DNA of 64,000 nucleotides from an uncultured Erysipelotrichaceae bacterium (GTDB lineage: Bacteria; Bacillota_I; Bacilli_A; Erysipelotrichales; Erysipelotrichaceae): contig CAYJJS010000004.1 of the NCBI GenBank assembly GCA_964370645.1, positions 6,613 through 70,612 of the forward strand, read 5' to 3'. Of this stretch, positions 10,850 to 62,954 are shown piece by piece. The notes beneath the pieces were generated by a model, which did not search any database, was not told the DNA's origin, and worked only from the letters and a program-made list of their open reading frames with translations. The first letter of the stretch is position 1; every line of letters starts with the position of its first letter. The position numbers were made by a program, and so were the translations under genes.

Positions 10850-10858
10850 AGCAGCTCC

Positions 10859-11389: not shown

Positions 11390-11476
11390 GTTCTCACCTC
11401 AATTTATATATTATAACAAAATCTTAAGAATACTTCACTACTTTTTAGCCATACTACTAACGAAAGGAGTGATACT

Positions 11477-13571: not shown

Positions 13572-14563
13572 ATTTGAACTTTTTTTTGTTTTATTCGATA
13601 TGGAATATAGCCAATCACAAAGGCCATAGTAAGAGAAGCTATACATACACATATATAATGGATTACACTATTATATACAAATATACTTTCTAACCCAATG
13701 GCTTGTGATGCACCACGTATCAATACGATGCATAATGGATGTAAGATATATACCCAAGTCGTCATTTCACGTATATTTTTAAGTGGTGACATACGTATAC
13801 TCAATAAGTATGAAAAGAAAAAATACATGGTTGGAATTAAACATATATACATACTATCGTGTCTTTGCCACTCTAGTGTATGAAGCACTTGTGCTTCCAC
13901 ACACATTCCTACTAAGGACACCACACTTAGTGTCAAAGCTGTCTTCTTAGCTACTTTAGTATGTGCATATAAATACATCCCTAAGGTGAAAAAGAAAGGT
14001 AAGAAATACAATCCATTTCGAGTATATTCAAAGATTATAAAATTAAAATCATAAATTTGTGAAAGCAGAGGTATATTTTGAATTACACCATAATAACTAT
14101 CACCAAATAGACCAATCATATATAAGATAGCACTTATACCTAAAACCTTTTCAATGCTGCAAACTTTACACAGCCCATGCACAATCAATATGCATAATAC
14201 CATAGCAGGAAAATACCACAAATGATAAAATACACCATCAAACAATAGTAAGCGAACAATGTTAGTGCCTTCATATACACCTGCATACATACCTAGCGGG
14301 ACATATATAATCATGGATACAATATATAGTGCTATAAGTCTAGCAATAAAACTTGTTACCTTTTGCTTATCCTTTATTTTTGTGAAAAAGAAATACCCGC
14401 TCACCATTGCAAAGAACGGCACTCCTACACGTGCGATTCCCCTTGTGAAAATAAAGTCTGCACCTTCATTAATAGATGTTAGTGGTGATGTATGTACTGC
14501 TACCACAAGTAGTGCCGCAATCATTTTAAACACATCCAAGGCACCCAATTGTTTTTGACTCAT
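13568..14563 (-). CDS. Acyltransferase family 3 integral membrane protein
   Basis: About 10 TM segments. The N-terminal motif LDVFKMIAALLVVAVHT is typical of acyltransferase_3. The start is moved to the ATG at 14563, which is preceded by AGAGGGGGA. Confidence 0.7.
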   Translation of the reverse strand: MSQKQLGALDVFKMIAALLVVAVHTSPLTSINEGADFIFTRGIARVGVPFFAMVSGYFFFTKIKDKQKVTSFIARLIALYIVSMIIYVPLGMYAGVYEGTNIVRLLLFDGVFYHLWYFPAMVLCILIVHGLCKVCSIEKVLGISAILYMIGLFGDSYYGVIQNIPLLSQIYDFNFIIFEYTRNGLYFLPFFFTLGMYLYAHTKVAKKTALTLSVVSLVGMCVEAQVLHTLEWQRHDSMYICLIPTMYFFFSYLLSIRMSPLKNIREMTTWVYILHPLCIVLIRGASQAIGLESIFVYNSVIHYICVCIASLTMAFVIGYIPYRIKQKKVQI

Positions 14564-14671
14564 ATAATTCCCCCTCTTTGTAAACATAGTATCAAACTCA
14601 CAACATGAGTTCAACCAAATTTCATAGACTACTTAAAAAAAGTGATGAAGCACATGGCCTCATCAACTTTT

Positions 14672-15949: not shown

Positions 15950-16076
15950 ACTGTTCTCCTTTTTTAAACCTGAATTATTATACCATTACTAATTAAAAAT
16001 CACAACGAACTATATATTTAATTAAACTTACATATTTACTGTAACAATTATGTATATAGTGTACGTAGAACAGGTA

Positions 16077-16107
16077 TAAAAAAACTAGATATCAATTAGA
16101 TACCTAG
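16077..16107 (-). terminator. Rho-independent terminator after ftsZ
   Basis: Minus-strand hairpin CUAGGUAUC-UAAUU-GAUAUCUAG followed by a U-run. Confidence 0.6.
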
Positions 16108-16115
16108 CTTATATA

Positions 16116-17168
16116 TTACATTCTGTTTTTAAAGAAGAATGATGGTTCTTCACTTTCTTCTACTTCTACATGTTTAGAACGAGTTGTAGTATCTACATTT
16201 ACTACCGCTTCCTCTTCTTCCTCTTCTAAATCAAATCCAGTCGCAATAACTGTAACAATAATTTTATCTCCTAAAGCTGGGTTAATCGCAACTCCAAAGA
16301 TAGTATCGATATCGCCACCTGATACTTCATTTATGTATTGTACTGCATCTTCAGCATCGAATAAGCTAATTGATTCTCCACCAGTAATGTTGATGATTGC
16401 TTTTTTAGCACCTGAAATTTGAGCTTCTAGTAATGGTGATTCAATCGCACGCTCTGCAGCTTCTCTTGCTTTTGCCTCTCCTTCAGCCATTCCAACTCCA
16501 ATCAATGCTTTTCCTTGGTTCGCCATACTTGATTTAATATCTGCGAAATCTAGGTTAATTAAAGCAGGCGCAGCAATTAAGTCTGTAATGGTTTGCACCC
16601 CTTGGCGTAATACATTATCTGCCGCTTCAAATGCTTCAATAAGTGGTCTTCTACCAATTACTTCTAATAGGTTGTTGTTTGAAACAATAATTAGTGAATC
16701 TACATGTTCTTTCAACTCTTCTAGACCTGAATCCGCTTGACGCATTCTTACTCTACCTTCAAAACCAAACGGCTTTGTTACAATACCAACAGTTAATGCC
16801 CCTTCTTCTTTTGCTAATTTAGCAAACAATGGTGCAGCACCTGTACCAGTACCTCCACCCAATCCAGCAGTTACAAACACCATATCACTACCTTTGATGG
16901 CTTCTCTAATTTCTGCTTCCGTCTCCATAGCTGCTTTTCTACCCATTTCTGGATTTGCACCAGCTCCTTGACCTTTTGTTACATTTTGTCCTAGAATAAT
17001 TTTATTTTTAACAGGTGATTTTTGTAATACTTGTAAATCCGTATTTGCTACGAAGAATTCAACACCTTGAATCCCTTCATCCGCCATTCTATTTACTGCA
17101 TTACATCCTCCTCCACCAACTCCAAACACTTTGATGGTAACTACTTTTCTGAAATCCTCATTTAACAT
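16116..17168 (-). CDS. ftsZ: Cell division protein FtsZ
   Basis: Tubulin signature GGGTGTGAAP, and an acidic C-terminal linker plus tail. Confidence 0.95.
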   Translation of the reverse strand: MLNEDFRKVVTIKVFGVGGGGCNAVNRMADEGIQGVEFFVANTDLQVLQKSPVKNKIILGQNVTKGQGAGANPEMGRKAAMETEAEIREAIKGSDMVFVTAGLGGGTGTGAAPLFAKLAKEEGALTVGIVTKPFGFEGRVRMRQADSGLEELKEHVDSLIIVSNNNLLEVIGRRPLIEAFEAADNVLRQGVQTITDLIAAPALINLDFADIKSSMANQGKALIGVGMAEGEAKAREAAERAIESPLLEAQISGAKKAIINITGGESISLFDAEDAVQYINEVSGGDIDTIFGVAINPALGDKIIVTVIATGFDLEEEEEEAVVNVDTTTRSKHVEVEESEEPSFFFKNRM

Positions 17169-17183
17169 TGCTATTTCCCTCTC

Positions 17184-18428
17184 TTATTTCACTTGTAATA
17201 TATTTTTTAATCGTTTCGTAAATCCTGATTCATCATTACGCTGTACTTCTCTTGCTGTTGTATTTGTATAATCAATACAATAATCTGGTTTGTTTTTAAA
17301 CATTTCCATTTTGCGTGTACAATAGGCAATCCCTAAACAACAAGCATATTTTGCCTCTCTACATCCAATGGTAGAAGGGATATACAGTTCCGATTGCATT
17401 GCAATTTGCGACAACACAGAAGATATTCCAACAATATCTGCTCCATCCCCACTCACTACACAACGACTTTTTCCTTGTTTTGCAAAAGGTTCACACACTT
17501 CATTAATACTTTGAATCCATTCTTGTACATCTTCTTTTATGCACTCATACAATTCAATCTTATTTACTTCGCGATGTGTATCGCGATCTTTCCAAATGTA
17601 TGCCAACATCTCATCATAAATACCTTTATCATCAAAGCAACTTTCACGTAGTAGTTTTTCACCTTCAAAACGTGATAGTCCAAACTTACGATGAATACTA
17701 TCAATCCATTTTGCATAACCAAAACCAATAGTTGTTGACTCAATTAATTTCCCTTTATAAAATAAAGACAAATTTGTTTGTGATTTTTCTAAATTTACTA
17801 GTACGATAGCTTCGTTCATTGATTTTTCTAAAATGACACTTTCTTCCGCAATCGCAACACTATCTAAACAAATATCCATTACATGCACCCCAGCATCTTC
17901 TACACATTTTACATATGTATGTACTGTTTTTTTATCTGCATACAATAACTCAATGTCCATGCTTAATGTTTCAGCTCTCTCATCAATTGGTGCAGTACGT
18001 GAAACAATACCACCTACACTATATGCGATTGAACCTACATTCACAAATTCCAAATCTGCATGGTAGTCATAGTCAATTGCTCTTTTTAAACCGGTGCGAA
18101 CATGTGACATTTTAATTTTTCTACTACCTTCTTCTATATCTACTACAACTCTTTTACGTAGTGACTTTACATTAACACTAGGGATACCTAGTAATACTCT
18201 ATTTATTTTAAACCCTAAATTTATCTCCATTTTTTTAATTAACTTTGTAATTGCAGCAGACAAATTCGCAGATTTCACGATTTCTTTGTTATAAATACTA
18301 TCTATTTTCATAGTTTCTACTTTCAAAACATTAAATCTAGACATATAATAATCAAGAATAAGTAATCGTATCTCATCATCCGCAATCTCAAGACTTGCAT
18401 AAAGTTGTTTAAGCTGTTTAGGTTGCAT
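17184..18428 (-). CDS. ftsA: Cell division protein FtsA (divergent)
   Basis: 414 aa actin/HSP70-fold protein immediately upstream of ftsZ. Confidence 0.75.
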   Translation of the reverse strand: MQPKQLKQLYASLEIADDEIRLLILDYYMSRFNVLKVETMKIDSIYNKEIVKSANLSAAITKLIKKMEINLGFKINRVLLGIPSVNVKSLRKRVVVDIEEGSRKIKMSHVRTGLKRAIDYDYHADLEFVNVGSIAYSVGGIVSRTAPIDERAETLSMDIELLYADKKTVHTYVKCVEDAGVHVMDICLDSVAIAEESVILEKSMNEAIVLVNLEKSQTNLSLFYKGKLIESTTIGFGYAKWIDSIHRKFGLSRFEGEKLLRESCFDDKGIYDEMLAYIWKDRDTHREVNKIELYECIKEDVQEWIQSINEVCEPFAKQGKSRCVVSGDGADIVGISSVLSQIAMQSELYIPSTIGCREAKYACCLGIAYCTRKMEMFKNKPDYCIDYTNTTAREVQRNDESGFTKRLKNILQVK

Positions 18429-31776: not shown

Positions 31777-32271
31777 TTACATATCTAAAATTGAATCCAT
31801 GATGCTATCCCAAGTTCTCCAACCCAGTGTTCCATCAATTGTTAAATCATTTAATGCTTGATATTTTTGTACAGTACTTTGCGTTTTTGTCCCATACATT
31901 CCATCTTCTTTAAGTGGAATTTCACTCCCTTTAAAAATTTCATTCAAATACTCCTGCATTTTTTCCACGGATAAACCAATGCTTCCATTCGCTAAATAAT
32001 AAGAGCTAGAAGCCACTGGAATACTAGGATTGATATTTAATGTTTTCAACTTTGATACAACTGCATCCCACGTATTTTCCCCAATGATTCCATCTACTGA
32101 AATTCCTTCATAATTTTGAAATTGTTGGACGGATGTTTTCGTATCACTTCCAAAAATTCCATCTTGTACTATTTTATTACGAATAAACCCATAGTCATGC
32201 ATAATGTTCAAATATGCTTGCATTTTGTTTACACCAATTCCACTATCTCCACTTTGTATTACATATGTCAT
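31777..32271 (-). CDS. Protein made of two PG_binding_1 repeats
   Basis: Two repeats of the form DGIFG..T...V..FQ.....DGI.G..TW. No signal peptide is evident. Confidence 0.65.
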   Translation of the reverse strand: MTYVIQSGDSGIGVNKMQAYLNIMHDYGFIRNKIVQDGIFGSDTKTSVQQFQNYEGISVDGIIGENTWDAVVSKLKTLNINPSIPVASSSYYLANGSIGLSVEKMQEYLNEIFKGSEIPLKEDGMYGTKTQSTVQKYQALNDLTIDGTLGWRTWDSIMDSILDM

Positions 32272-33163: not shown

Positions 33164-33760
33164 TTAGAAATATTGTTTTACATACACTACTTTTCCCAAT
33201 ATGGTTATTGGTAATGTTTCTACTTCTTCTTTTGTAAAATAACGTGTTTCTACCTGTGGATTGGAAGCTTGTAAAATAAGCATGTCTGCTTTATACAACA
33301 CACGTTTCATAGTCACTTCCTCACCAACGCAAACAATCGCAATATCCTTATTATTCACATAATTACATCGTTTAATATAAGCAAGACTTCCCGATACAAT
33401 CCCATCTCCAAGCATAGAATCCCCCTCTACTTGTAAAAAATAATCCCCACTCTTACGTTCTTGTATAGTCACTTCTTCATAACCTAAGTGCGTCGATTGT
33501 GCATACATATCGTACCCCGCTTTTACACTTCCTAGAATAGGTTTTTTAAACTGTACAATATTTCCTTGCAACAAAGGTTTTACATCATAACCAACCATAT
33601 CACTAATGCGATCCAATAATTCTGGTTTTACGCGTTTAGAGGCACCACTTAACCACTTACTCACACTTGATTTACTAACACCTGTTAAAAGCGCAATCTC
33701 TGTATTGCTTTTTTGCGCTGTTTGCTTATATTCCTGCAGTATTTCTTTTAATTCCATCAC
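33164..33760 (-). CDS. XRE-HTH plus S24 peptidase repressor (HdiR/LexA-like, self-cleaving type)
   Basis: HTH (NTEIALLTGVSKSSVSKWLSG), an Ala-Gly cleavage site (VKAGYD), Ser in GDSM and Lys in MKR. Divergent from a Y-family polymerase gene. Confidence 0.8.
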   Translation of the reverse strand: MMELKEILQEYKQTAQKSNTEIALLTGVSKSSVSKWLSGASKRVKPELLDRISDMVGYDVKPLLQGNIVQFKKPILGSVKAGYDMYAQSTHLGYEEVTIQERKSGDYFLQVEGDSMLGDGIVSGSLAYIKRCNYVNNKDIAIVCVGEEVTMKRVLYKADMLILQASNPQVETRYFTKEEVETLPITILGKVVYVKQYF

Positions 33761-33844
33761 ACACCTCTTTTTCCTATTATAGCATTATCTATGTAACATT
33801 CAAATATTTTACAACCTTTAACAGTGAATAGTTTCTCAAAATCA

Positions 33845-33873
33845 TTGATACAAGAAACTATGTTTTGTATAAT
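33845..33873 (+). promoter_or_regulatory. Promoter of the polymerase operon (TTGATA-17-TATAAT) with the dyad AAAC-TAT-GTTT in the spacer
   Basis: Exact -35/-10 spacing of 17 nt. The spacer holds AGAAACTATGTTTTG, loosely similar to the Firmicute GAAC-N4-GTTC SOS box. Confidence 0.45.
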
Positions 33874-33893
33874 CAATACACAGGAGGTATATT

Positions 33894-35141
33894 ATGAAAG
33901 AAAAAATTATAGTGCATGCAGATTTAAATCATTGTTATGCACAAATTGAAGAGATGAAATGCCCTTCCCTTCGAAATGTGGCGATGGCTGTTGGGGGCAA
34001 TGAAAAAGCTAGACATGGAATTATTTTAGCGAAAAATGATATTGCGAAAAGCTATCATATAAAAACCGGAGAAAGTTTACGTGAAGCGTATCGTAAATGT
34101 CCACATTTACTTGTCGTACCTCCAAACTATGAAGAGTACATGTATTATACACAACAAGTTAAAAATATATATCAAGAATATACATCTCAGGTTGAAAGTT
34201 TTGGACTGGATGAAGCTTGGTTTGACTTAACCTATTCTACCTCATTATTTGGCGATGGTATTGCCTTAGCCAAAACTATTCAACTACGCATCCTTAACGA
34301 ATTGGGATTGCGTGTATCTATGGGTATTTCCGACAATAAAATTTTCGCAAAAATGGGTAGTGATTTAGATAAAAACATGGGCTTTACTATCATCAATAAA
34401 AAAAACTACAAACAACGCATTTGGTCATTACCCATCGAAGATTTGTTTTATGTAGGTAGCGCAACTGCAAAAAAACTACATCAATTACACATCTTTAAAA
34501 TTGAAGATTTGGCCACTGCTCCAATTGAAATTTTGCAGAAAAAATTAGGTAAAATAGGCGAAGTATTATACCAATTCGCCCATGGTAAAGACATAAACAA
34601 TGTATTACCCTCACTTTATAAACAAATACCAAAATCAATTGGAAATAGTGTCACTACACCAAAGGATATGACTACCTACGAAGAAGCAAAAATTGTTTTA
34701 CAAGTACTTTGCGAAAGCGTTGCTTCTCGTTTAAAAGAACACAAGCTACAAGGGAGAAGTATCCAACTCCATATCCGTAATACAAATCTTTCCTCATCCA
34801 CTAAGCAGTGTACTCTGCAACACCCAACCGATATAAGTAAAGAACTCTTACAAGCTAGCTTACAACTTTTAAGTAAACACCACAATTTTGATATTGCACT
34901 ACGCAGTATTGGTGTTTGTGTTTCTTCTTTATGTACCCCAAACACACATGTACAGCTGGACTTATTTCATGTTGCATATACACAAGACAAGGCAAGAACA
35001 CTGGATTGTGTTATGGATGAAATACGTAATAAATATGGATTTCATAGCATAAAGAAATTAAACGTATTACAAGATACTACACTTAGTTCATTCAATCCAA
35101 AAGGTGATCATGTCATCTTTCCTCAAGGATACTTTCGCTAA
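33894..35141 (+). CDS. Y-family (UmuC/DinB-like) translesion DNA polymerase
   Basis: The N-terminal segment IIVHADLNHCYAQIE resembles the conserved Y-family (IMS) catalytic-site opening. 415 aa. GGAGG RBS. Confidence 0.85.
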   Translation: MKEKIIVHADLNHCYAQIEEMKCPSLRNVAMAVGGNEKARHGIILAKNDIAKSYHIKTGESLREAYRKCPHLLVVPPNYEEYMYYTQQVKNIYQEYTSQVESFGLDEAWFDLTYSTSLFGDGIALAKTIQLRILNELGLRVSMGISDNKIFAKMGSDLDKNMGFTIINKKNYKQRIWSLPIEDLFYVGSATAKKLHQLHIFKIEDLATAPIEILQKKLGKIGEVLYQFAHGKDINNVLPSLYKQIPKSIGNSVTTPKDMTTYEEAKIVLQVLCESVASRLKEHKLQGRSIQLHIRNTNLSSSTKQCTLQHPTDISKELLQASLQLLSKHHNFDIALRSIGVCVSSLCTPNTHVQLDLFHVAYTQDKARTLDCVMDEIRNKYGFHSIKKLNVLQDTTLSSFNPKGDHVIFPQGYFR

Positions 35142-51444: not shown

Positions 51445-52611
51445 TTATTTATTCTCTAATGCTAAAAGTTCATGCACTCTGTTTTGAATAAATTGTTCAA
51501 TTGCCTTTAATCTCCTACTTGAAAGATTATAACTAGGGTGTTTATCAAACTTAAAGTAAATCATCTTTCTTAGCTTTTGTTTTTGTCGTTGTGTAATAAA
51601 CTCTCTCGCTAAATCTAAAAAAGGAATATTATAATAGGACATCCTTGTTTTTGCATATGTATTTATGTTTTCAAAATGTTCAGGCATTCCGCATGAAATA
51701 ATGATAATCCATTATCAAAAACAGGAGCGAATGCAATCGGGGTATTTGTTTCATTTTCCACTAGTAACCCAAAATTTCCATAATGTCGATCTTGATTGCA
51801 TATTAAAGAATCAAAAATAAGCATATCTACAAACGCATCATAAAACGTTGGATTTTCTTTTCTCAGGTACTCGCCAACTTCGTAAATAGGTGCGTTCTTA
51901 ACAAAATCATAAATTTGTACATAGGAAACTTGTGGGCTTGTAAACAGCTCACAAGTAGAACAAATCTCTCTTCCATTTTGACAAATTATAAGTGACATGG
52001 TCAATGCCCATTACCGTAGCAATTTGTGAGGCCTAAAATTCAGAATAAGGTTCAAAGCCAGTATTGATTCCACCGCTTGAACCACCTTTATACAAATAAA
52101 TCGTGTTATGCTACCTTCTCTACCCTTTTCTCAACATCCCATTTGTTGTGAATTCTGGTGAAGAAGTAAACCCCTGAACCTTAACTCTTCCATAACCCGT
52201 ATATGCAACTGATGCTAATGTTTTCTCAAAGGTATTTTCGTATAAATTATAATCAGAAAATGCCCCTTCAAAATCATTATCTACCACCCAATAACTATCA
52301 TTTAATGATAAACCTTTACACCTTTTTATAATAGCAATAGTATCATTATGTGAAAGACCCATTTTAGCTAGTGAGCTATCCACAAATTCACGATTTTTAG
52401 GAATTACTCTTCTTTTTAACCATGACATAACACCTTCATCACTTAATACAAACCCGATTGGAAGCAAAGATATATAATTTGTGTTGACATTGACAATTTC
52501 ACATCGTTGTCCTTTAATTCCTTCATCAATATATTTGAAAGTAAGTAAAGAATAATCAAATTGTTTAAGCGTAAATAACATAGTGTCTCTCCCTTCCACA
52601 ATATACTGCAT
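51445..52611 (-). pseudogene. Decayed HipA-like kinase (toxin-type) gene
   Basis: HipA-like N-terminal, core (YKGGSSGG..EPYSEF) and C-terminal catalytic (CNQDRHYGNFG) segments lie colinear but in three frames. There is an in-frame TAG at 52033-52035 and at least two frameshifts. No hipB partner. Confidence 0.7.
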
Positions 52612-52682
52612 AATCCTACTACTATATTTAACTCTATTTACACTCGTTTTAAAATGGTAAAATCAACAACGATCAAGCAACC

Positions 52683-52707
52683 AAAAAAGCACTTCTCGTG
52701 AAGTGCT
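52683..52707 (-). terminator. Terminator of the SleC-like gene
   Basis: Minus-strand AGCACUUC-ACGA-GAAGUGCU followed by U6. Overlaps the stop codon. Confidence 0.7.
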
Positions 52708-53593
52708 TAATTTGTTAATTGTACATATACTTCATTTAGCTTATACCAAGTCGTGTTACCAACAATACCATCTGGCGTTAAGCCTAATAAATTTTGAAAA
52801 GCTATGACAGCCGTTGCTGTTGCATTACCAAATATGGAATCTGCAACAATGTACGGTATAGATTTGTAATAAATAGAAATGGTTTGTAATCGCTGTTGTA
52901 CAAAAAGTACATCACTCCCACTACTTCCTACACGAATTAGTTGCCCTGGATAAGGTGGTAATCCAAGCGAAGGTGTATCCCCATTTTTAATTTCATCTGC
53001 GAGTGTAAATAGTGCTTTCCATGTCTCTTCTCCTACAATTCCATCTCCATCCAACCCTACGATGTTTTGAAAGATTTCCACTGCATTCTCACTTGCACTA
53101 CCAAAAACACCGTCCTCAACTAATATGGGAATTGATGAATACACATTTCCAACCACATTTAGCGCCACTTGTACTTGCTTTACAACATCTCCATTACTAC
53201 CTAATCGAATAAAATAACCTGGATAGGCATCGACTTCTTCATCCGGAACGATGACACCCTCATAATCTGCATACTTAGAAAATATTAAATTCCACGTTGT
53301 TTGTCCAACGATACCATCTTGTACTAATCCATATCTTGCTTGAAAAGACAATACACTGTTAAATGTTTGTTGTCCAAACTTACCATCAATCTCATCAATA
53401 TCCTTTACTTGTGCATCAAACTCAGAAATACATATCAACATATATTGTAAAAATTGTACTTCCACTCCGGAATCATTAAACTGCAATGGTGAGCCAGGGT
53501 ATTGTCCACTTAAAAAACTGCTCGTAACCCCTAGACTTCCTAACTCTGCAAGTTTACGAACCGATACATACACATACGAAATTTTGTACCATG
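52707..53593 (-). CDS. 3' segment (294 codons) of the interrupted SleC-like gene: three further PG_binding_1 repeats
   Basis: No ATG or RBS; the track start is a GTG inside foreign sequence. It opens mid-repeat with WYKISYVYV, which continues the truncated repeat at 58240. Confidence 0.8.
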
Positions 53594-53616
53594 CCACAAT
53601 GACATACGGACACTTT

Positions 53617-55221
53617 TTAACTTTTTTCTGTGAAAGATAAATAATTTTCGATATTCACTTTTAGAAATACTTCAATATTCTTCTCTTTATCGATTTCAAT
53701 TTTCTCAACTAAATCATAGATCAATTCAAATGTAGGTGTCTTAAACGCGACAAATTTCTCAATGATTTCGCGACATTCTTCAAAAGATGCTTTTTCATTT
53801 TCATTCTCTTTCTTCAAAATTGTTTTTTCTAACGCCTCTTTTTCCTTTTCTAATCGTTCTACCTTTTCATCATACTGTTTTATTAACATGGTATATTGCC
53901 CGAGACTAATGATATCATTTAAGCGATCCTCATATAGTTTTAATATTATCTTTTCATTTTTTTTAATATCTTTGCTAAGCTCATCTACTCTATTCTGAAT
54001 ATACCTATTCTCTTGACTTTTCAAATGAAGTACTTTCTTCATAAAATTCTCTTGATTGAATTCTTTCATGAAATTTTTTCCTATTTCATGAAAATAATGC
54101 AATAGGTGTAATTCTAGTTTCTCATAACTAAACGAATGTGAACAACATACTCCATGCTTACTAAATCTTCGATAATATTCACATTGTCCATGAAAAGTAA
54201 TTCCTTTCTTCAACTTTTTTTTATAAATAGTAATTGCATGTCCACAGTCTTTACACACTAATAAACCTTGAAATAAATGCTTTTTCTCCCCTTTAGAGCG
54301 AAATTTACTATTTTTATCTAAAGCTTTTTGTACTTTATTAAAAACATCAACACTTACAAGCGCTTCATGAGTGTTTTCAACTACATACCATTCTTTCGGA
54401 TCTGTAGCAATTATTTTTTCTGAATTATAGCTCAACTTTCGAAACCTACCTTGAATCATATGACCTAGATACATTTTGTCAGACAGTATTTGCCTCACTG
54501 TTTGAGGGCGCCATATTCCAGTCCCCTTATTTAATTCTTCATTCTTTGATACGTAACGCTTACTATAAATAGAAGGAATAGGTACTCGGGCTTCTGTTAA
54601 TCTTCTTGAAATAACTGTTGTTCCTGCACCACTACTCGCCCATTCAAAAATTTGTTTTACATATTTACTTGAAATTGGATCTGGGATTAGGCGCTTAGGA
54701 TTGTTAGGATTTCTCTTATAGCCAAATTTCGGAAATGAAGCAATATAATCCCCTTTCTTCCTTTTTACATCAAATGTACTTCTTATTTTTTTTGAAGTAT
54801 CTCTTAAATATAAGTCGTTCACACTAAGACGAATTCCGAGCATAGCATCTCCTACTAATGAATCATATCCATCATTAATTGCAATAAAACGAACATTTTT
54901 TGTTAAGAAATATTCTTCAATATAAATTCCTGTTTCATATAATTCTCTTCCTAATCTTGATAAGTCTTTAACAATCACACAATTTATTGTTTCATTTTCA
55001 ATGTCCTGTTTCAATAGTTCGAACCCAGGTCTATTGTAATTCGAACCAGTAAACCCATCATCACTATAATATTTACTTATGATAAGATTATTAAACTTGG
55101 CAAATGATTCAATAATCATTTTTTGACTCTCGATTGAAGAACTTTCATCTCTATGATCATCTTCACGTGAAAGCCTAGTATATGCACCCACTAAATACTT
55201 TTTTCTATTGGTGCTTCTCAC
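53617..55221 (-). CDS. Large serine recombinase
   Basis: 534 aa. Resolvase catalytic domain (AYTRLSREDD), recombinase domain, Cys-rich zinc ribbon (CKDCGH...C..) and a C-terminal coiled coil. Confidence 0.9.
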   Translation of the reverse strand: MRSTNRKKYLVGAYTRLSREDDHRDESSSIESQKMIIESFAKFNNLIISKYYSDDGFTGSNYNRPGFELLKQDIENETINCVIVKDLSRLGRELYETGIYIEEYFLTKNVRFIAINDGYDSLVGDAMLGIRLSVNDLYLRDTSKKIRSTFDVKRKKGDYIASFPKFGYKRNPNNPKRLIPDPISSKYVKQIFEWASSGAGTTVISRRLTEARVPIPSIYSKRYVSKNEELNKGTGIWRPQTVRQILSDKMYLGHMIQGRFRKLSYNSEKIIATDPKEWYVVENTHEALVSVDVFNKVQKALDKNSKFRSKGEKKHLFQGLLVCKDCGHAITIYKKKLKKGITFHGQCEYYRRFSKHGVCCSHSFSYEKLELHLLHYFHEIGKNFMKEFNQENFMKKVLHLKSQENRYIQNRVDELSKDIKKNEKIILKLYEDRLNDIISLGQYTMLIKQYDEKVERLEKEKEALEKTILKKENENEKASFEECREIIEKFVAFKTPTFELIYDLVEKIEIDKEKNIEVFLKVNIENYLSFTEKS

Positions 55222-55292
55222 TCTACTTCCCCCTCTATCATAATTAATCAGATAACCTATGCCTTATACATTACACATTGAAAACAAAACTG

Positions 55293-55415
55293 TTAGACGT
55301 GCAAATTCGATTTTTGTTGTTTGAAGTACTTCACAACGTTTTCTTCCATCACTTTTTCTAACTCTTTTTTTGCCATTGAATGATTAAATATAATTTTAAA
55401 TTTTCTTTTATGCAT
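55293..55415 (-). CDS. 40-aa basic sORF upstream of the recombinase gene
   Basis: Not in the ORF track (too short). Encodes MHKRKFKIIFNHSMAKKELEKVMEENVVKYFKQQKSNLHV. Strong AAGGAGG RBS 7 nt upstream of the ATG. Confidence 0.4.
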   Translation of the reverse strand: MHKRKFKIIFNHSMAKKELEKVMEENVVKYFKQQKSNLHV

Positions 55416-55537
55416 AGTCTATCCTCCTTAATCAACTATTTAATTTGTTGTTATATTACTATATGATTCATTTTTTGATTTAGAATATCTCAAATTATTA
55501 CTTCTTATTAATCACCATTTCATTTATTAAATTATAC

Positions 55538-55572
55538 TAAAAAATAACGCAGTCAATGTAACTACGTTATTT
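55538..55572 (-). terminator. Hairpin plus U-run separating the cargo genes from the sORF-recombinase unit
   Basis: AAATAACG..AGT / ACT..CGTTATTT stem followed by a U-run on the minus strand. Confidence 0.45.
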
Positions 55573-55802
55573 GTTTAATATCTTATTTTGTTTACCCAAA
55601 TATTTACAATCAATCATCAAACCCCTCATTTATTTATAGGGCCTTTATTTCTCTTCTCATAATAAAATCAACCATTTCTAAGAACATTTACCTTAATAAG
55701 CTTACTTGGATATCATATGCTATAAACAATACAATTGTGATTATTTTTAATCACATAAAACGCTAATTTTGTCTATTATAAATATCTTTATGTTAAGAAA
55801 TA

Positions 55803-56090
55803 TCATCCAAAAATCATAAAGAAAGTAAAAGTGATTAAAGTAAGATTAATGAAAATTAATTTTGGATACTCATTTTTTTTACTTTTGTTCATGAAGAAAT
55901 AAGAAACGTTAAAATAAAACATCCATGTTATTCCTTGTAGTAAAAATGCTATTTCATTAGAAACATCGAAAAATGTAAAAGAAATAAAGAGTATAATAAA
56001 TGATGCAATGGCTCCGTAAATAAAGCTATCACGAATTTCATTAGTAAGATGTGTATTAAATTTCATGATTGACCTCCTTAAATATATCAT
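55803..56090 (-). CDS. Hypothetical 95-aa membrane protein (3 TM segments), element cargo
   Basis: Hydrophobic ORF. No family recognised. Confidence 0.45.
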   Translation of the reverse strand: MIYLRRSIMKFNTHLTNEIRDSFIYGAIASFIILFISFTFFDVSNEIAFLLQGITWMFYFNVSYFFMNKSKKNEYPKLIFINLTLITFTFFMIFG

Positions 56091-56329
56091 TCATCGAATA
56101 TTCTAAAGGCATTATTGAAATTGCCGTTCAGTTTTTATGATACATAACTGATGATAGCACCAATTATTCCTGTAACAAGCCCTATAACATCTCTAACACC
56201 CCTAATTTTGATCTACTATATCATAAAGTTGATGCTCCTATTCGTATTAATATTTACCACTTTTTATTTGTATTGAAGTATGTATAGCAACACATGTACT
56301 TAACACAATTGTTTTAACGTATTATTTTT

Positions 56330-56677
56330 TCATTCTCCTTCCGATTTGTTTTGGAATTCCTTTAAACCTTTAAAATTAAAATAATCTTCATATATATCAA
56401 AAAAGGTTAACATATTTGCTCGTTCTTCTTCTCTATCTTCATCAATATATTTCAATTCACTATTTTGCGTAGCTATATAGTACTCTTCATATGTTGAATT
56501 ATTTAGATCCGGTAAATTATAGTCTTGTTGCATAACTTCTAAATCATCTTCATAAAGCTTTTTGAATTCCTGCAGCGCATTCTCTCTGATCGGTTTAATG
56601 TAAAAAAGATGTACACATACAACTAAGAGAAGTAATGAAACTAAAGTTATACCAATCATCTTTATATTTTTTTTCAT
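56330..56677 (-). CDS. Hypothetical 115-aa membrane-anchored protein sharing a domain with the upstream amidase-like protein
   Basis: N-terminal TM anchor. The segment LEVMQQDYNL...Y..YY...L.FFDIYE parallels LEVIQKNMNL...Y..YY...LSFFDIYE in the 56704 ORF. Confidence 0.5.
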   Translation of the reverse strand: MKKNIKMIGITLVSLLLLVVCVHLFYIKPIRENALQEFKKLYEDDLEVMQQDYNLPDLNNSTYEEYYIATQNSELKYIDEDREEERANMLTFFDIYEDYFNFKGLKEFQNKSEGE

Positions 56678-56703
56678 AGCATTATCCCTTCCTAGTTAAT
56701 AGT

Positions 56704-57757
56704 TTACGGATTTCCAATTTTCCACAGAATTCTTGTTGAACCATCATTCACCCAACCTGTATGTGATGATAATTTGTAATAATTACTTGTATGTTGAGCA
56801 ATGTATTTAGTATATGAAGATGGTCCATTATTAGCGATATAGCCTATGTGATCTAAATGTCCATCCCCTCCGAAATCCGCAGCAATAAAATCTCCTTTAT
56901 TTAGATGTCCTACAAAACTACTCCAATATCGTGTTTGATTCTTTTTCCCCCATTTAGCACCAAACATATGAGCATTAATCCATGGTCCATTATATGGCCT
57001 CCAATTCGCAACTGTAATCATTCCCCCAGCTCTCGCAATTTGTGAAGCAAAATTCGCACAATCTCCGCCTTGAGTATAATAATTGTATGCAGGATTCGGA
57101 TTATTTGCATATCTAATTGCATAAGTGCTTGCTGCACTCACATTTGGCATTTGTGATAATCGTGTCCCTGTTGGAGCTTTCATTAAACCCTCTTGTGAGT
57201 TTTCTTGTTCTAAAGATATCAATCGCTCATTATAATCTGGAGAGATACTATCTATTTCGTATAATAAGTCAGCCTTATTCACTTTATACTCGTTACCCAA
57301 TTGTTCTTTTAATAACAATAGTTCATCATTATATTCATTATTTTCATAAATATCAAAAAATGATAGAACTTCTACTTGATCTTCTGAAGAAAAGATTTCC
57401 TCTCCATTTTCCTTAATATAATTGTAATATTGAACATAGTTCTTCTCATTTATTTCTGATAAATTCATATTTTTTTGTATGACTTCTAACTCTTTTCCAT
57501 GCTTTCCTTTAAATTTATTAAGTGATTCATCTCGCTCTTCATACGTGACTAATAAAGATATTTTCTTACCATCAACACTAAAATCACCATTAGTAATAGT
57601 TTTTCCCCAAGAAGAGTTTTCATTAATGAATTCTGCCGTTTTATCAGGTGTAGATAAATCTGATAAGCAGTTAGGGCTATTTATTTCCTGAGCATTAACA
57701 GCCACTATTGATCCAGTAAATAACAACATTCCCACAACAATATTTTTTATATTTCAT
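56704..57757 (-). CDS. Secreted putative amidase-domain (Amidase_6-like Cys/His) protein, with a 5' frameshift in an A6 tract
   Basis: The C-terminal segment GGDCANFASQIARAGG ... DHIGYI resembles the putative amidase domain. The RBS and ATG at 57757 are out of frame with the body by 1 nt. The track ORF starts on GTG at 57735. Confidence 0.55.
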
Positions 57758-58216
57758 TTTTGTCTCCTTTTCTTTAAATGTATTTTCCATTAAATTCATG
57801 TATATGTATTTATAGCTTTTTATAACTTTTAAAAAAACATATCAATCATCTCCTTTATTTAATTTTTAATAGCTAGGATTCTAGTGTACACTAACTTTTT
57901 AGCATCGTATTATTCATTTATTAGTGCTACTTTTAATAATTATATAATAACATATCCTTCTGCTTCAAACTAATATCATACACTATTCATGACCAACATA
58001 CATTTTGAAAGTATATTTTAATATATAATAAGCAATCAGCCAACAAATCCATCTGCGACTAACACCTTTGAATTTACTCTCGCCCTTATAGCCATTGTAT
58101 ATGCTTGATTAATACTACCTTTACAAACTCTTTCGAAATGAATGATTCCCATAATTTTGCTAACCTTTCAGTACAAATTTGATATTTTAGTTACTGACAA
58201 CGCTTATATTATGTTG

Positions 58217-59398
58217 TCACTTTTTCTTTGTTTCACATGTAGCCTTTCCAACAATTCCATCTACGGTTAGTGCGAATTGACGTTGTACAATTTCTACTGC
58301 TGCCTTTGTGGCAGGGCCATAAATACCATCTACTGGGAAAATAGGTGTGATTGCAGGATAGTTTAAGGCAATCGCATTCAGTTGTTTTTGAATCGTTGTA
58401 ACATCCAATCCACTACTTCCCAGTTGTAATGGAACACCAGGATAAGAAGATGTGATAAGTTCAACATTATTTGTTGTTACTAGTGAGATACTATCTCCAT
58501 AGTAAAACTGTAAAATTTCAAAAGCGCTATACCCTTGTAAAGCCAAATCCTGTGTCCCCCATTGTTTCAAACCTGGACAATCTGCAATTTTCCCATCACA
58601 ATATTCTGCATAAAAGGGTTCACTGAAATCTGCTTTCTGTATATACGTATTAAATATATCATCCACAATCTCTGAGATATTATCATAAATATTACGATCC
58701 TTAATAAAGTATTGGTCAAATCCTGTATTATTTGTAATCGTGTAATTATACCCCTTACTTGGATACCACTCTGTATACACTCGATTCAATACTAATGAAA
58801 TTTGACAATAAATATTCGCTCGTAGTGACTCCTCTTCCCATGTAGGATAAATTTCACTACAAGCAACATTTTTCACATACGAAATAAAGTCCACATTCAC
58901 ATCTTCAGCATTACTTGTGGGTGAGCCTAAATGTACCGTTACTGTTTTAGGAATAATTACATTTCCTAAAATTCTCGTTAAATTGCGAAAACCTGCCTCT
59001 GCATTTGTATCATAATTACTAAGCAAAGGATGATCTGGTATATAGCTAACTTTTTTAATTACTTCTCTTGTTTTATTAGGAATCAAGTTCAGAGGCAAAG
59101 TTGTATAAATTGTATCAAAAATTTGTACATTCACAACCTCTAAAACCTCATAGCCATTCGCCTTTACTTCTACATTGTATCTTTGATACGTTCTTTCTCT
59201 ATTGTTTTCATCTAGTGACAAATCCTTACTAGGTGCTTCTAATGGAATGTATGGTGTCTCACCATTTACATCTGTAATATAAAACGATTCACTACTCACC
59301 TGATCATCTTCAATCAAGTAAATTCTTACCATCGCTTCCGATATTGGAAATGCCTCTTTCGCACTTGTCACAAATACTCTTAAATATCCACTCGGCAT
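58217..59398 (-). CDS. 5' segment of the interrupted SleC-like spore cortex-lytic enzyme gene: 387 native codons plus 6 element-derived codons and a stop
   Basis: The start MPSGYLRV has an AGGGGGGA RBS. The segment VHLGSPTSNAEDVNVDFISYVKNVACSEIYPTWEEESLRANIY..LNRVYTEWY resembles clostridial SleC, followed by a first PG_binding_1 repeat truncated at GIVGKAT. Confidence 0.75.
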   Translation of the reverse strand: MPSGYLRVFVTSAKEAFPISEAMVRIYLIEDDQVSSESFYITDVNGETPYIPLEAPSKDLSLDENNRERTYQRYNVEVKANGYEVLEVVNVQIFDTIYTTLPLNLIPNKTREVIKKVSYIPDHPLLSNYDTNAEAGFRNLTRILGNVIIPKTVTVHLGSPTSNAEDVNVDFISYVKNVACSEIYPTWEEESLRANIYCQISLVLNRVYTEWYPSKGYNYTITNNTGFDQYFIKDRNIYDNISEIVDDIFNTYIQKADFSEPFYAEYCDGKIADCPGLKQWGTQDLALQGYSAFEILQFYYGDSISLVTTNNVELITSSYPGVPLQLGSSGLDVTTIQKQLNAIALNYPAITPIFPVDGIYGPATKAAVEIVQRQFALTVDGIVGKATCETKKK

Positions 59399-59466
59399 AA
59401 AAATCCCCCCTAACATACAATATGTTAGAGAGGATTTTACGTAAAGGTATGTGCCTAATTGAGGCA

Positions 59467-60930
59467 TCAATACCCTCTTTGTTTTAGTTGTGTTCGTATG
59501 AAATGATATACCAAATACGTTGCATAGGTATCCATAGCACAATATGCTAATAATTGTTTTATGGTTTGGGTATCGTCTTCACTCACATTTTCCATCATTC
59601 GATACTTTCTTACAGCTTCTAACCCATGTGTAATATCCAAGTCTTCATAGTTATAATCCGTAAAAATAGATACTATTTTCTTTAGTGAATACATCCCTTC
59701 CATACGTACATCATAAATCAATCCACTCGCGAACGGAATCGCAATATCGATCATACGTTTCCATATGTGTTGTAACGCATCAGCATAGGATGGAAATTGT
59801 TTTGCGAGTTGAGTAAGGCGTAGCTTTTCTCCCCCTTCCACATTAAAACAAACTATGCTTTTTGTATCTTTTAAATCGTCTAATAAAGATTGAATAAAGG
59901 CTTCCCTACAATCCTTTTTACCCAAATATTCACGATGTTCCAAACGTCCATCTTCATATTCAATATGCAAAGAATATTGAAATGTTAATACATCATAAGG
60001 CTTCATACCATCAAAAGGAGGGAATGCATACGTTTCCCACTCAAAATCTAAATACGCAATTGGATATTGTACATCACCTAAGAACATATCAATTGCACTT
60101 GCATCGAAAAACATTTGTTTACTCGTTGCTGCAATATATTGTGCATATTGATGTCTAGTTCCCTCAATTGCTGCAAAATCCAAATCCTCAATATAGCGAA
60201 TTCCACTCTCATACATATCGAATTTATGTTTACTAGAAATTAGGTTTAAGATAGAAGTTGGTTCCTCTTTTATATGAAAACATAAATTAAAATAAGGACA
60301 CTTCCCCCTTCTAGTACATACATTCGTTCTTTTCTTACTTATTTCTGGCTCTATCTTCAATATGTTCATATGCTGTAATGTGTTGCTCAAATCTCTTGTA
60401 TATCGTTGTAATAGACATGAAATCTTTTGGCCTACTTTATTCTTATCACTATAAAAAGAATCATTAATAATCAATAACGCATCCACATCATACTCACCCT
60501 GTCTTACATATTGTGAATTTAAATGTATTGCATACACTTCTTTGATTTCTATTTGTAATGCATTACACACCCATAATGCATCAGCAATACTTTGTGCTTC
60601 TCCCTCTTTCGGATAACACGAAGGATATAAAAAATAAGCGATATATGCAGTATCTTGCTTTATTAATATTGGAATACGAACATGTAGATTTTGATGTTGT
60701 AAAGATACCTTTACAAAGACATCATAATCCTTCATTGCTTCAAAAAAAACACTATTATCATGTACATGACTTCCTCTAAAATAATTAGAGATACGTAATT
60801 TTTCTAAACTTAAATCATATATATTTTCATTATAATATATAAATGGTAAATATGGTTGGGGTTTACGCAAGCTCCACCACAACATTTTTTCACATCGATC
60901 ATACTGTTTTACATCTTTAATTTGCCACAT
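59467..60930 (-). CDS. DUF2779-family protein (PD-(D/E)XK-like N-terminus plus RNase H-like C-terminus)
   Basis: N-terminal C..LWW motif and a central YLDFEWE...FQYSLH block. The start is set to MWQIKDV, which has an AAGAGG RBS. Confidence 0.55.
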   Translation of the reverse strand: MWQIKDVKQYDRCEKMLWWSLRKPQPYLPFIYYNENIYDLSLEKLRISNYFRGSHVHDNSVFFEAMKDYDVFVKVSLQHQNLHVRIPILIKQDTAYIAYFLYPSCYPKEGEAQSIADALWVCNALQIEIKEVYAIHLNSQYVRQGEYDVDALLIINDSFYSDKNKVGQKISCLLQRYTRDLSNTLQHMNILKIEPEISKKRTNVCTRRGKCPYFNLCFHIKEEPTSILNLISSKHKFDMYESGIRYIEDLDFAAIEGTRHQYAQYIAATSKQMFFDASAIDMFLGDVQYPIAYLDFEWETYAFPPFDGMKPYDVLTFQYSLHIEYEDGRLEHREYLGKKDCREAFIQSLLDDLKDTKSIVCFNVEGGEKLRLTQLAKQFPSYADALQHIWKRMIDIAIPFASGLIYDVRMEGMYSLKKIVSIFTDYNYEDLDITHGLEAVRKYRMMENVSEDDTQTIKQLLAYCAMDTYATYLVYHFIRTQLKQRGY

Positions 60931-61250: not shown

Positions 61251-61326
61251 GTTGAATATTTGTCTACACCCATATAGTACATTTTTGTAGAATATTTGTC
61301 AACAATTTGTTGAATTTTTGTCTACA
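61251..61326. repeat. Three 18-bp direct repeats (GTTGAATATTTGTCTACA / GTAGAATATTTGTCAACA / GTTGAATTTTTGTCTACA) in the divergent promoter region
   Basis: Located at 61251-61268, 61287-61304 and 61309-61326. Repeats 2 and 3 create the palindrome TCAACAA-T-TTGTTGA. Confidence 0.8.
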
Positions 61327-61338
61327 AACCTATATAAT
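61310..61338 (+). promoter_or_regulatory. Promoter of the LexA-like gene (TTGAAT-17-TATAAT), with the -35 inside repeat 3
   Basis: Hexamers and spacing read directly from the sequence. Confidence 0.55.
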
Positions 61339-61362
61339 GTACATAAGAAATGGAGTGATATT

Positions 61363-61992
61363 ATGAGTATTGGAAATCGAATCCGTTTACGTAGAGAGTC
61401 TTTAGGACTATCTCAAGACGAATTAGCGAAGCGCTTAGGTTACAAATCTAGATCTTCTGTAAATAAGATTGAAATTGAAGATCGTGCTATCCCACAAAAT
61501 AAAATTAAGCAAATTGCTGAGATTTTAGAAACAACAACGGATTATATTATGGGATGGGAACAACCACCTATACCTATGGTAAATGAATTTCATGAGATTC
61601 CTATCTATGATGCACTTTCTTGTGGTATTGGAGGTGTTGTGGAAGAGTATGCGCAAGAACACTTTGTACTTCCTCTATCTATGTTAAAAACAAATAAAGA
61701 GTACTTTGCCAATTATGCAAATGGAGATAGCATGATTGAAGAAGCGATCTTCGATCAAGACTTATTAATTTTTGAAAAAACACAAGTGTTACGCAATGGA
61801 GATATTGGTAGTTTCATTATTGATGATGAAGCAGCTACTTGTAAAACCTACTATCGTGATGCGAAAAGTGGAGAAATTCAATTGCTTCCTGCAAACTCAA
61901 ATTATGAACCCATTATCATTCATCCCCAAAATACTTCTTTTCGTATTTTAGGAAAACTTGCATTAACAATTCGTAATCATCAAAGGAGCTAA
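61363..61992 (+). CDS. XRE-HTH plus S24 peptidase repressor (LexA/CI-like)
   Basis: HTH (LGLSQDELAKRLGYKSRSSVNKIE), a candidate Cys-Gly cleavage site (LSCGIG), GDSM Ser and CKT Lys. The start is set to the MSIGNRIR ATG at 61363. Confidence 0.8.
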   Translation: MSIGNRIRLRRESLGLSQDELAKRLGYKSRSSVNKIEIEDRAIPQNKIKQIAEILETTTDYIMGWEQPPIPMVNEFHEIPIYDALSCGIGGVVEEYAQEHFVLPLSMLKTNKEYFANYANGDSMIEEAIFDQDLLIFEKTQVLRNGDIGSFIIDDEAATCKTYYRDAKSGEIQLLPANSNYEPIIIHPQNTSFRILGKLALTIRNHQRS

Positions 61993-62954
61993 GCTCCTTT
62001 TTTCGTATATACTTGCATCATTTTCACTAATTCATTTTGCAACTCTTCTCTTATATCAATTGGAGCAATCACTTCACACTCACTTTGTAAAGACATTAAG
62101 AAAGATAATAGCTGCGCTCTTCCCTCATATAAGAAGCGAATATGTAATTGTCCATTTTCATAATGTTTATATAATACATATTCCGTTATATTTTCATCCA
62201 ATAATTTTGCTTGTACACCTGTTACGCGTATCTCAACTTCGATACGTTCTTTCATCAAAGAGGATTTCCCAACGTGTTCACTCACCTTAAAATCATAATC
62301 ACGAGCAAAGGTTTTTGATAATATACGAACCTCTGACATTCGATTTTCTATAATTTTAAAATGCTTAAACAAGTAAGACTGTGGATCACTCACATCATAT
62401 CCCAATAGATAAACACCACTCTTATTCACTAACACTTCATAAGGATGTACTACCTTTTGTTTTACATGCTCACTTTGTAAAGAAGTATATGCAAAGCTAA
62501 TACATTGCATATTATTTTTTGCTTGATAAATCGTATCCACCATCTTTTTAACACTATCGCTCATCCCACTATTTTGACTGCTAAAATACACTGTATCTTT
62601 AGAATTATCCACTTGTTTATTTCTTGCTTGCAACTTCATCATGGCTTGTTCAAACATAGGATAGTGAATAAACTCTTTTTGTAAAGATAAGTAGTTTACA
62701 CTATTCTCAATGGCTTCATACTCCTCTTTGCTAAGTTGTAGTGAAGGAAACAGTACCTGTTCATTCAATACATATCCACCATATTTACCTCGTGTAGAAT
62801 CAATCATATACCCTGCTGTTTCAATCTCTTTTTTAAACTCTAATACATTTCTTGGATTACTCTCCAACATTTGTGCAAGTTCATATCGATTAATTGGTTT
62901 TTTTCTTCCAGCTAATATTTGTAACATTTTTATAACTAACGCACTTCGATTCAT
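61989..62954 (-). CDS. HTH plus WYL-domain transcriptional regulator
   Basis: N-terminal HTH_11-like segment (INRYELAQMLESNPRNVLEFKKEIETAGY) and a central WYL-type block (HPYEVLVNKSGVYLLGYD...FKHFKIIENRM). Confidence 0.75.
   Translation of the reverse strand: MNRSALVIKMLQILAGRKKPINRYELAQMLESNPRNVLEFKKEIETAGYMIDSTRGKYGGYVLNEQVLFPSLQLSKEEYEAIENSVNYLSLQKEFIHYPMFEQAMMKLQARNKQVDNSKDTVYFSSQNSGMSDSVKKMVDTIYQAKNNMQCISFAYTSLQSEHVKQKVVHPYEVLVNKSGVYLLGYDVSDPQSYLFKHFKIIENRMSEVRILSKTFARDYDFKVSEHVGKSSLMKERIEVEIRVTGVQAKLLDENITEYVLYKHYENGQLHIRFLYEGRAQLLSFLMSLQSECEVIAPIDIREELQNELVKMMQVYTKKGA

Follow-up and report, generated by a model that had tools for sequence, protein, structure and literature searches.

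A small serine-recombinase element divides a sleC-like germination gene in frame in an Erysipelotrichaceae bacterium

Is a gene for a spore cortex-lytic enzyme that has been cut in two by a mobile element simply broken, or can it be made whole again when the cell needs it? The question is raised by a stretch of 64,000 nucleotides (nt) from an uncultured Erysipelotrichaceae bacterium (assembly GCA_964370645.1, contig CAYJJS010000004.1, positions 6,613 to 70,612), referred to below as the window, in whose coordinates all positions are given. A sleC-like gene on its minus strand is interrupted by an intervening element of 4646 bp (53594..58239), the boundaries of which are ambiguous within a 4-bp repeat.

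The 5' part of the gene (58240..59398, minus strand; residues 1-387), delimited by the list of open reading frames (ORFs) and by alignment to PDB 9h68, encodes an N-terminal pre-pro region, a SpoIID-like catalytic region and the greater part of the first PG_binding_1 domain. Its ORF (58217..59398) begins at 59398 with an ATG that follows a GGGGGG ribosome-binding site, and runs to ...TVDGIVGKAT before reading six foreign codons (CETKKK) and a stop; the truncated product of 393 amino acids (aa) is the protein called in the source genome (P0013). The 3' part (52707..53593, minus strand; residues 388-681), recognised from the ORF list, Pfam and the orthologue alignment, holds the end of the first PG_binding_1 repeat and three further repeats. 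Its ORF (52707..53597) opens (V)AWYKISYVYVSV and lacks both an ATG and a Shine-Dalgarno sequence of its own; at its stop codon a hairpin scan located the intrinsic terminator of sleC (52687..52708, minus strand), with a 9-bp stem and a T run. CATG is found at both junctions (58236-58239 and 53590-53593), and in-silico deletion of the element yields one ORF of 2046 nt and 681 aa, in the product of which Pfam finds PG_binding_1 four times. The ORF ends, the CATG sites, the 4646-bp deletion and the 681-aa join had been proposed in an initial annotation of this DNA, and were reproduced here base for base from the ORF table and the junction sequences.

Homology of the pre-pro, catalytic and peptidoglycan-binding regions establishes the interrupted gene as a SleC homologue. 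Residues 1-406 of the joined protein match the solved pre-pro-form of SleC (PDB 9h68) with an E-value of 8e-82 and, together with the recombinase gene at the edge of the insert, this match supports the initial proposal of a SleC-type gene split in frame by a serine-recombinase element. The clostridial enzymes with which the homology over residues 1-406 is shared (C. difficile CD0551 and C. perfringens SleC, besides 9h68) measure ~420-440 aa, whereas members of the window family reach 641-705 aa through three extra PG_binding_1 repeats. SleC homologues are present in spore-forming Erysipelotrichia (Galperin et al.), and the window protein is assumed to be the main cortex hydrolase of its host.

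A search of 5.8 billion proteins returned thousands of relatives of the joined protein. The best orthologues, those with a named source coming from Amedibacillus, Merdibacter and other Erysipelotrichaceae, are uninterrupted, 641-705 aa long, and align with 53-69% identity over 94-100% of the query. Proteins that run uninterrupted across the junction, by which the initial annotation had proposed that the join be judged, do therefore exist; ten were aligned, and nine of these are gap-free within tens of columns around the junction, where the window protein reads GKAT|WYKISYVYV and the consensus GKATWYKISYIYV. T387, W388, Y389, I391, Y395 and the stretch VRKLAEL are invariant in the full-length orthologues, and all of them are kept in the joined protein. 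The agreement of join, frame and orthologue alignment is far beyond chance. In the two closest orthologues (P0001, 69% identity; P0002, 64%) the intact gene has the neighbours that surround it in the window (WYL, LexA-like S24, DUF2779, sleC, ..., hpf; window counterparts from 62954 down to 50773), and these genomes hence show the empty site. At the position of the junction they conserve the TGG codon for Trp and not the CATG, which is replaced by CTTG and CCTG. An excised allele from this species was not found in the protein collection, in which the best other SleC match is 69% identical.

Neither half of the gene appears to be decaying. Neither contains a stop or a frameshift, and no family-invariant residue has been lost; moreover, the ratio of C-half to N-half identity is 0.84-1.05 between the window protein and its orthologues, matching the 0.81-1.06 obtained among intact orthologues. 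This lack of decay fits either selection acting through excision or a recent insertion.

The insert has a G+C content of 29.0%, compared to 33.5% for the window, and contains five credible genes, every one on the sleC strand. A large serine recombinase of 534 aa (53617..55221) occupies one edge, and the ORF list confirms the initial report that its gene ends 23 bp inside the junction. Its resolvase domain (PF00239, E 7e-20, residues 13-158) is followed by a recombinase domain (PF07508, E 2e-19) and a zinc ribbon (PF13408, E 3e-6), and the phrog_95 integrase family matches residues 4-522 with an E-value of 2e-94. S18, within YTRLSREDD, is invariant in 17 clade members, and all clade-invariant residues are kept. 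As judged from these domains, the protein combines a catalytic domain bearing the predicted serine nucleophile with the C-terminal extension of ~300-400 aa, comprising recombinase and zinc-ribbon domains, that marks large serine recombinases. Located 72 nt upstream is orf40 (55293..55415, minus strand), which encodes 40 aa behind a strong ribosome-binding site, AAGGAGG, and is a candidate recombination directionality factor. A terminator-like hairpin with a T run (55542..55572, minus strand), found by the hairpin scan, divides this two-gene unit from the cargo.

The cargo, also on the minus strand, includes genes for a 95-aa predicted membrane protein (55803..56090; ORF and family scans), a 115-aa membrane-anchored protein (56330..56677) and an Amidase_6 protein (56704..57757, with a long ORF at 56704..57735; PF12671, E 5e-19). 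The 115-aa product is 36% identical to that of an ORF downstream of the amidase gene in two other loci (L171, L172), and the amidase and 115-aa gene pair recurs in unrelated islands beside AgrB and DarT/Macro genes, or beside a tyrosine integrase and Prim-Pol. Homologues of the amidase (44-50% identity) have MKK... signal peptides. In the window an extra A in an A6 run shifts the ATG and its ribosome-binding site at 57757 out of frame, and the signal peptide is cut off; when one A is removed, the canonical signal peptide MKYKNIVVGMLLFTGSIVAVNA|QE appears, as in the homologues. The break may represent a true frameshift, a slippery homopolymer or a sequencing error. A further ORF of 38 aa with a weak ribosome-binding site (orf38; 58036..58152) has no homologues that we could find.

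A prophage or defective prophage was considered as the source of the element and rejected. No phage capsid, tail, portal or terminase gene was detected in it by a PHROGs scan, in which the integrase was the only strong match; the Amidase_6 protein produced three weak ones, to families of unknown function (E 8e-5), of peptidases (8e-4) and of endolysins (2e-3), and no recombinase from the viral contigs exceeds 36% identity. A mobilisable transposon of the Tn4451 type was likewise set aside: the likeness to TnpX is limited to the catalytic domain, and domain and PHROGs scans of the element ORFs revealed no relaxase or Mob family and no oriT-type function.

The attachment (att) sites were examined by reconstructing attP and attB in silico, recombining the four half-sites. 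The core of attL (58236..58239, the same on both strands) and that of attR (53590..53593, from the junction sequences) is CATG, in which the likely crossover dinucleotide is the TG of the minus strand; this central TG is non-palindromic, as is needed in the crossover dinucleotide of a serine integrase. The reconstructed attP (...CATTGTGGCATGTGAAACAAAG...) displays a dyad symmetry of 14/25 that is centred exactly on the T|G of CATG, a value of at least 14 being reached at 0.33% of window positions. The reconstructed attB (...GGAAAGGCTACATGGTACAAAATTTCG...) has no clear symmetry, with at most 5/25 at the core. A direct repeat, AAAAAGTG, present in both attP arms was discounted as probable chance, since the arms of a serine integrase site should be inverted.

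What this recombinase family usually does was approached through its relatives, defined as recombinases of 43-59% identity in about a dozen loci with an examined downstream flank, the protein's own database entry being excluded. Directly downstream of the recombinase lies murG in most of them (L001-005, L086, L087, L252, L253-255, L256/257). The 100-170 bp between the two genes were at one stage taken for the flank of an intergenic insertion upstream of murG, a view rejected once the conserved C-terminal end of a SEDS protein (FtsW/RodA/SpoVE), with the tail motif (V)TGVTLP(L/F)(M/I/L)SYGG(S/T)SL...ILN(I/V)S, was recognised in frame within them. In two loci (L089, L090) murG was not detected and the recombinase is upstream of the same SEDS gene fragment. 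Every examined close relative of the window recombinase thus splits a SEDS gene, at TGVTLP(L/F)xSYGG, and not sleC. The full split arrangement is visible in Coprobacillaceae genomes (L253-255, 6948..11631), in the order mraY, murD, a response-regulator gene on the opposite strand, a 331-aa SEDS N-terminal part, the element, the SEDS tail and murG. This element of 3.6 kb carries a GGDEF gene, a 39-aa ORF overlapping the recombinase start, and the recombinase; the repeat ACAGGTGT is present at both of its junctions, and the joined reading is ...GLLPVTGVTLPLMSYGGTS.... The slot in the dcw cluster that the split gene occupies is, we take it from the established gene order of B. subtilis, the position of spoVE.

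The smallest of the sister elements measures 3.6 kb and the largest more than 10 kb; among their cargo are GGDEF, PemK, AAA/PDDEXK_9, ABC transporters and a 1296-aa PNP_UDP_1 protein. The only gene besides the recombinase that is common to all of them is an ORF of 39-49 aa of the orf40 family; when five members were combined into a profile, it detected a further, independent one in L087 (E 2e-13), directly upstream of the recombinase. This conserved pairing is what would be expected of a directionality factor, and makes orf40 a candidate for that role. When the detached 30-aa SEDS tails of eight elements were compared, the proportion of non-synonymous differences (pN, 0.22) was far below that of synonymous ones (pS, 0.68), and the tails are therefore still under selection at the protein level. 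Such selection points to routine reconstitution of the gene or else to many recent independent insertions. The relatives with sister elements have spoIIGA-sigE-sigG. Literature searches turned up no interrupted spoVE, and this SEDS-splitting family is apparently undescribed. The sleC attB (...CTACATGGTAC...) is loosely similar to the SEDS attB of one sister element (L255, ...TTACAGGTGTC...), the two having TACA(T)GGT around the crossover in common, which hints that the sleC site may have begun as a secondary site resembling the ancestral attB.

These data also bear on the trivial explanation that an assembly artefact or a chimeric contig has joined unrelated sequence within sleC. The source, an 89-kb contig, looks like a draft assembly, and several nearby frameshifts could reflect sequence quality. 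Such an artefact is nonetheless very improbable, as the bounds carry a 4-bp direct repeat, the frame is restored to the base, the recombinase lies 23 bp from the junction, attP is symmetric, and the same architecture is seen at the SEDS site in independent assemblies.

Clues to the time of expression come from promoter-like motifs. A match to the sigmaK consensus, AC-N16-CATATTGTA, lies 18 nt upstream of the sleC start codon (59416..59442, minus strand), and a CATAnnnTA box (AC-N16-CATAttgTA in sleC) is found at the same distance upstream of the orthologues in L166 and L168. Full sigmaK-like matches number eight on this strand in the 64 kb, and three of the eight are at this locus: that of sleC, a second, AC-N16-CATAATATA, at the element's border and reading toward orf38 (58205..58231, minus strand), and a third at 55738..55711. 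The third is located ~140 nt before the hairpin at 55572..55542, with only a 13-aa and a 20-aa ORF between them; a small transcript may be made inside the element between 55738 and 55542, and no match to Rfam was obtained for 52400..59800 with E-values of up to 0.1. CATAnnnTA -10 boxes occur upstream of both orf40 and the recombinase, without a convincing -35 element. A (C)ATATnGTAAT box upstream of the small ORF of the family was rejected as a promoter; in most cases it is only 3-16 nt from the ribosome-binding site or the start codon. For sleC of C. difficile, transcription takes place in the mother cell and starts from a sigmaK promoter, a type whose -10 box also occurs in sigmaE promoters (PMC3789822). 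The matches in the window are compatible with mother-cell control and are not evidence for it.

The place of the cut suggests another possibility, namely that the 393-aa product already works, so that germination would not depend on excision; the element would remove only a lineage-specific tail of three repeats and at most toggle the enzyme between two isoforms, short and long. The 5' part contains both the catalytic region and the sigmaK-like promoter. Canonical SleC ends 19 residues past the junction (9h68 alignment), so the truncated product is nearly full length by clostridial standards and may retain activity; C. perfringens SleC, moreover, reportedly loses a C-terminal propeptide of ~25 residues on maturation. 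We nevertheless regard a tolerated truncation as improbable. Missing from the truncated product are the conserved W388 and the final helix of its PG_binding_1 domain, the Pfam match to which reaches residue 390, and T387, W388, Y389 and VRKLAEL are invariant in all full-length orthologues. The long form is present in 10/10 aligned orthologues, in the 120 best database matches except P0013 itself, and in ~70/80 genome loci with full query coverage. Because orthologues retain it, the repeat tail is under selection.

SleC-like genes of other shapes were also encountered. In six loci (L050, L052, L060, L066, L074 and L076), mostly from metagenome-assembled genomes of Faecalibacterium, Oscillospiraceae and Clostridia, the match starts only at ~residue 140-186; in these the N-terminal pre-region is missing or different, or the gene is interrupted at another site. 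In [Eubacterium] hominis (L068) the end of the contig falls within the SleC-like gene, at ~residue 494. The window itself encodes a stand-alone protein of 164 aa (31777..32271, minus strand) with two PG_binding_1 domains, which resembles the repeat tail of the sleC-like protein.

The insertion is precise, and excision between the CATG cores restores a gene of orthologue length with full conservation. We consider it somewhat more likely than not that this non-phage element, in a sleC gene presumably transcribed by the mother cell, is excised during sporulation. The sigmaK-like promoter of sleC and the absence of decay in either half make a sporulation-timed excision in the mother cell plausible. 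Developmental excision is further supported by the sigmaK dependence of sleC in C. difficile and by the relatives of the recombinase: the gene that they split is likewise cortex-related, and purifying selection acts on its detached tail. The timing, the cell type and the part played by orf40 are what we infer from these signs. According to this account, a small element devoid of phage functions would have entered, by site-specific recombination, the coding sequence of a sleC gene that the mother cell expresses. As long as the element is in place, sleC would give at best a truncated protein, the 3' part being without a start of its own. In the sporulating mother cell the recombinase, with orf40 as its probable directionality factor, would synapse attL and attR, cut at the central TG, rotate its subunits and religate. 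Excision would recreate attB within an intact sleC, driven by the sigmaK-type promoter and ended by its own terminator; the released 4.6-kb circle, non-replicating and carrying attP, would be lost upon lysis of the mother cell, while the forespore chromosome would retain the element and pass it on vertically. The element is one member of an Erysipelotrichales clade of minimal recombinase cassettes, the other members of which split the SEDS gene at the spoVE position.

A competing explanation is plain insertional disruption: a mini-element would have landed at a pseudo-site resembling its usual SEDS target and knocked out sleC, any excision being sporadic and serving transfer or loss rather than development, in a host that no longer sporulates or that uses another cortex hydrolase. 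Much of the evidence weighing against developmental excision agrees with this. The sleC insertion was seen in one genome only, which gives no sign of long-term maintenance at this site, and all relatives of the recombinase use another target, SEDS, to whose attB that of sleC bears a loose resemblance. A genome scan for SleC-like loci, with a tblastn search for the recombinase after it, revealed no other split sleC, such a recombinase being within 10 kb of none of the 83 loci; conversely, a SleC fragment lies beside the recombinase in 0/85 metagenomic and 0/79 viral-contig recombinase loci, the sole match there being a weak one to a peptidoglycan-binding domain ~7 kb from the recombinase (L111). 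Among solved structures, the catalytic domain of the recombinase is closest to that of TnpX of Tn4451 (2mhc, E 8e-28), and excision by TnpX is not known to need a directionality factor or a developmental cue. Enrichment of sigmaK-like motifs within the element is no more than modest, and they were identified post hoc; a sigma-70-type promoter scan of the region returned 42 sites against 43.2 expected from shuffles. The frameshifted cargo amidase could signal a decaying element (or a sequencing error) and, with the frameshifts of a neighbouring HipA-like gene, hints at regional gene decay. The nearness of the cut to the canonical SleC end, discussed above, likewise weighs against developmental excision.

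The signs of sporulation in the host are equally sparse. The 64-kb window contains no core sporulation gene other than sleC, and its ftsA-ftsZ genes (18428..16116, minus strand) are not followed by spoIIGA-sigE-sigG as in relatives, the usual ftsZ-spoIIGA-sigE-sigG linkage being absent. Many Erysipelotrichaceae are asporogenous, with extensive loss of sporulation genes (Galperin et al.). Plain disruption is, all the same, somewhat unlikely. Both halves of sleC are free of stops and frameshifts, keep the invariant residues and show the divergence profile of intact orthologues; the recombinase and orf40 are themselves intact; and purifying selection on the SEDS tail argues that, in these elements, excision routinely restores function.

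Other features of the window were noted in passing. Directly downstream of sleC, the HipA-like kinase gene (51445..52611, minus strand) is broken over three reading frames (ORFs 52120..52611, 51663..52004, which matches HipA_C, and 51445..51687), and relatives carry a Zn_dep_PLPC gene in its place. After ftsA-ftsZ the window has genes for a permease, an acyltransferase and a GAF protein (13110..18428) where relatives have proC-spoIIGA-sigE-sigG, and there is no murG/murB upstream. Two LexA-like S24 repressors are present (33164..35141 and 61318..62954); one of the genes is divergent from that of a Y-family (ImpB/MucB) polymerase, and the other is paired with a WYL-domain protein beside DUF2779-sleC, a pairing conserved in L166 and L168.

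How does the element compare to systems already known? Sporulation genes reported as interrupted are sigK, spsM, spoVFB, spoVR, gerE, kamA, yabG, cotJC and spoIIID. The reported intervening elements measure 2.6 to 134 kb, and the skin elements 2.6-48 kb (bioRxiv 10.1101/2022.02.25.481979); in the latter, the recombinase is typically at the edge, just upstream of the C-terminal fragment (Galperin et al., bioRxiv 10.1101/2022.02.25.481979), and the window element shares this layout. An interrupted sleC, or any other interrupted cortex-lytic enzyme gene, was not found in the literature, in line with the initial statement that no sleC-type case had been described: nine other genes are on record and sleC is not among them.

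The skin element of sigK (with SpoIVCA in B. subtilis, and CD1231 with the directionality factor CD1234 in C. difficile) is close in design, as it too places a large serine recombinase within a late mother-cell gene, which sleC is presumed to be, and precise excision restores the ORF in both cases, for the window element in silico. In skin elements, the smallest of which has two genes in 2.6 kb, a small directionality factor is found beside the recombinase gene or overlapping it (Skr overlaps spoIVCA). The targets differ: skin interrupts a sigma factor gene, whereas the window element interrupts a germination enzyme gene, so that its excision would not gate a regulon. The hosts differ as well, those reported for skin being Bacilli, Clostridia, Negativicutes and Tissierellia, and that of the window belonging to the Erysipelotrichales. 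The gin element in gerE of B. cereus ATCC 10987 (GirC and GirX) resembles the window element in being non-prophage, with a G+C content below that of its host, and in having a serine recombinase, a small accessory factor (in the window, a candidate) and a short junction overlap. However, gin is 28.6 kb long with three recombinases, and its sporulation-specific excision was shown experimentally, while the window element has 4.6 kb and one recombinase and its excision is predicted.

The small (4-20 kb) degenerate SPbeta-derived elements in spsM, reduced to an 'SSR unit' of attL-rdf-int-attR (Suzuki et al. 2020), are minimal cassettes of an integrase and a directionality factor. SSR units persist in mother-cell genes after loss of their cargo, much as in the window family the cargo varies and the recombination unit is conserved; they descend, however, from a known phage, and the window element is without visible phage ancestry. 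Tn4451/Tn4453, with TnpX, are small and non-phage like the window element, and both kinds are described as excising as circles, which for the window element is a prediction. They differ from it in that no mobilisation gene or oriT-type function was detected in the latter, and in that Tn4451/Tn4453 insert at loosely defined targets, whereas the window clade is site-specific and always uses the same SEDS motif. The centre of the core is GA in Tn4451/Tn4453, compared to TG in the CATG of the window element. New here are sleC as the target, the bacterial class, and the compactness of an element that is non-phage; the design of gene-splitting excision is itself already known.

Should excision prove not to be developmental, the locus would be no more than a common kind of mobile-element insertion, by which a single gene in a single genome is knocked out or trimmed. 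If it is developmental, programmed gene reconstitution would extend to a germination enzyme, to the Erysipelotrichales, gut bacteria with a heavily reduced sporulation programme, and to a very small non-phage element. A wider proposal, which we offer as quite possible though tentative, is that cassettes of a recombinase and a 40-aa partner may act as a developmental switch for the cortex genes of Erysipelotrichales, most of them splitting a SEDS gene, for cortex synthesis, and one having moved to sleC, for cortex lysis, with rebuilding of the gene in the mother cell only. If this is true, two new target genes and a new bacterial class would be added to programmed rearrangement in sporulation. 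The pairs of recombinase and orf40, with their defined attB sites, are candidate compact tools of integrase and directionality factor. Genome annotation would routinely miscall such split genes as pseudogenes or fragments, and the presence of the SEDS-splitting family in many gut Erysipelotrichales suggests that switches of this kind may be commoner in the microbiome than the few model cases imply.

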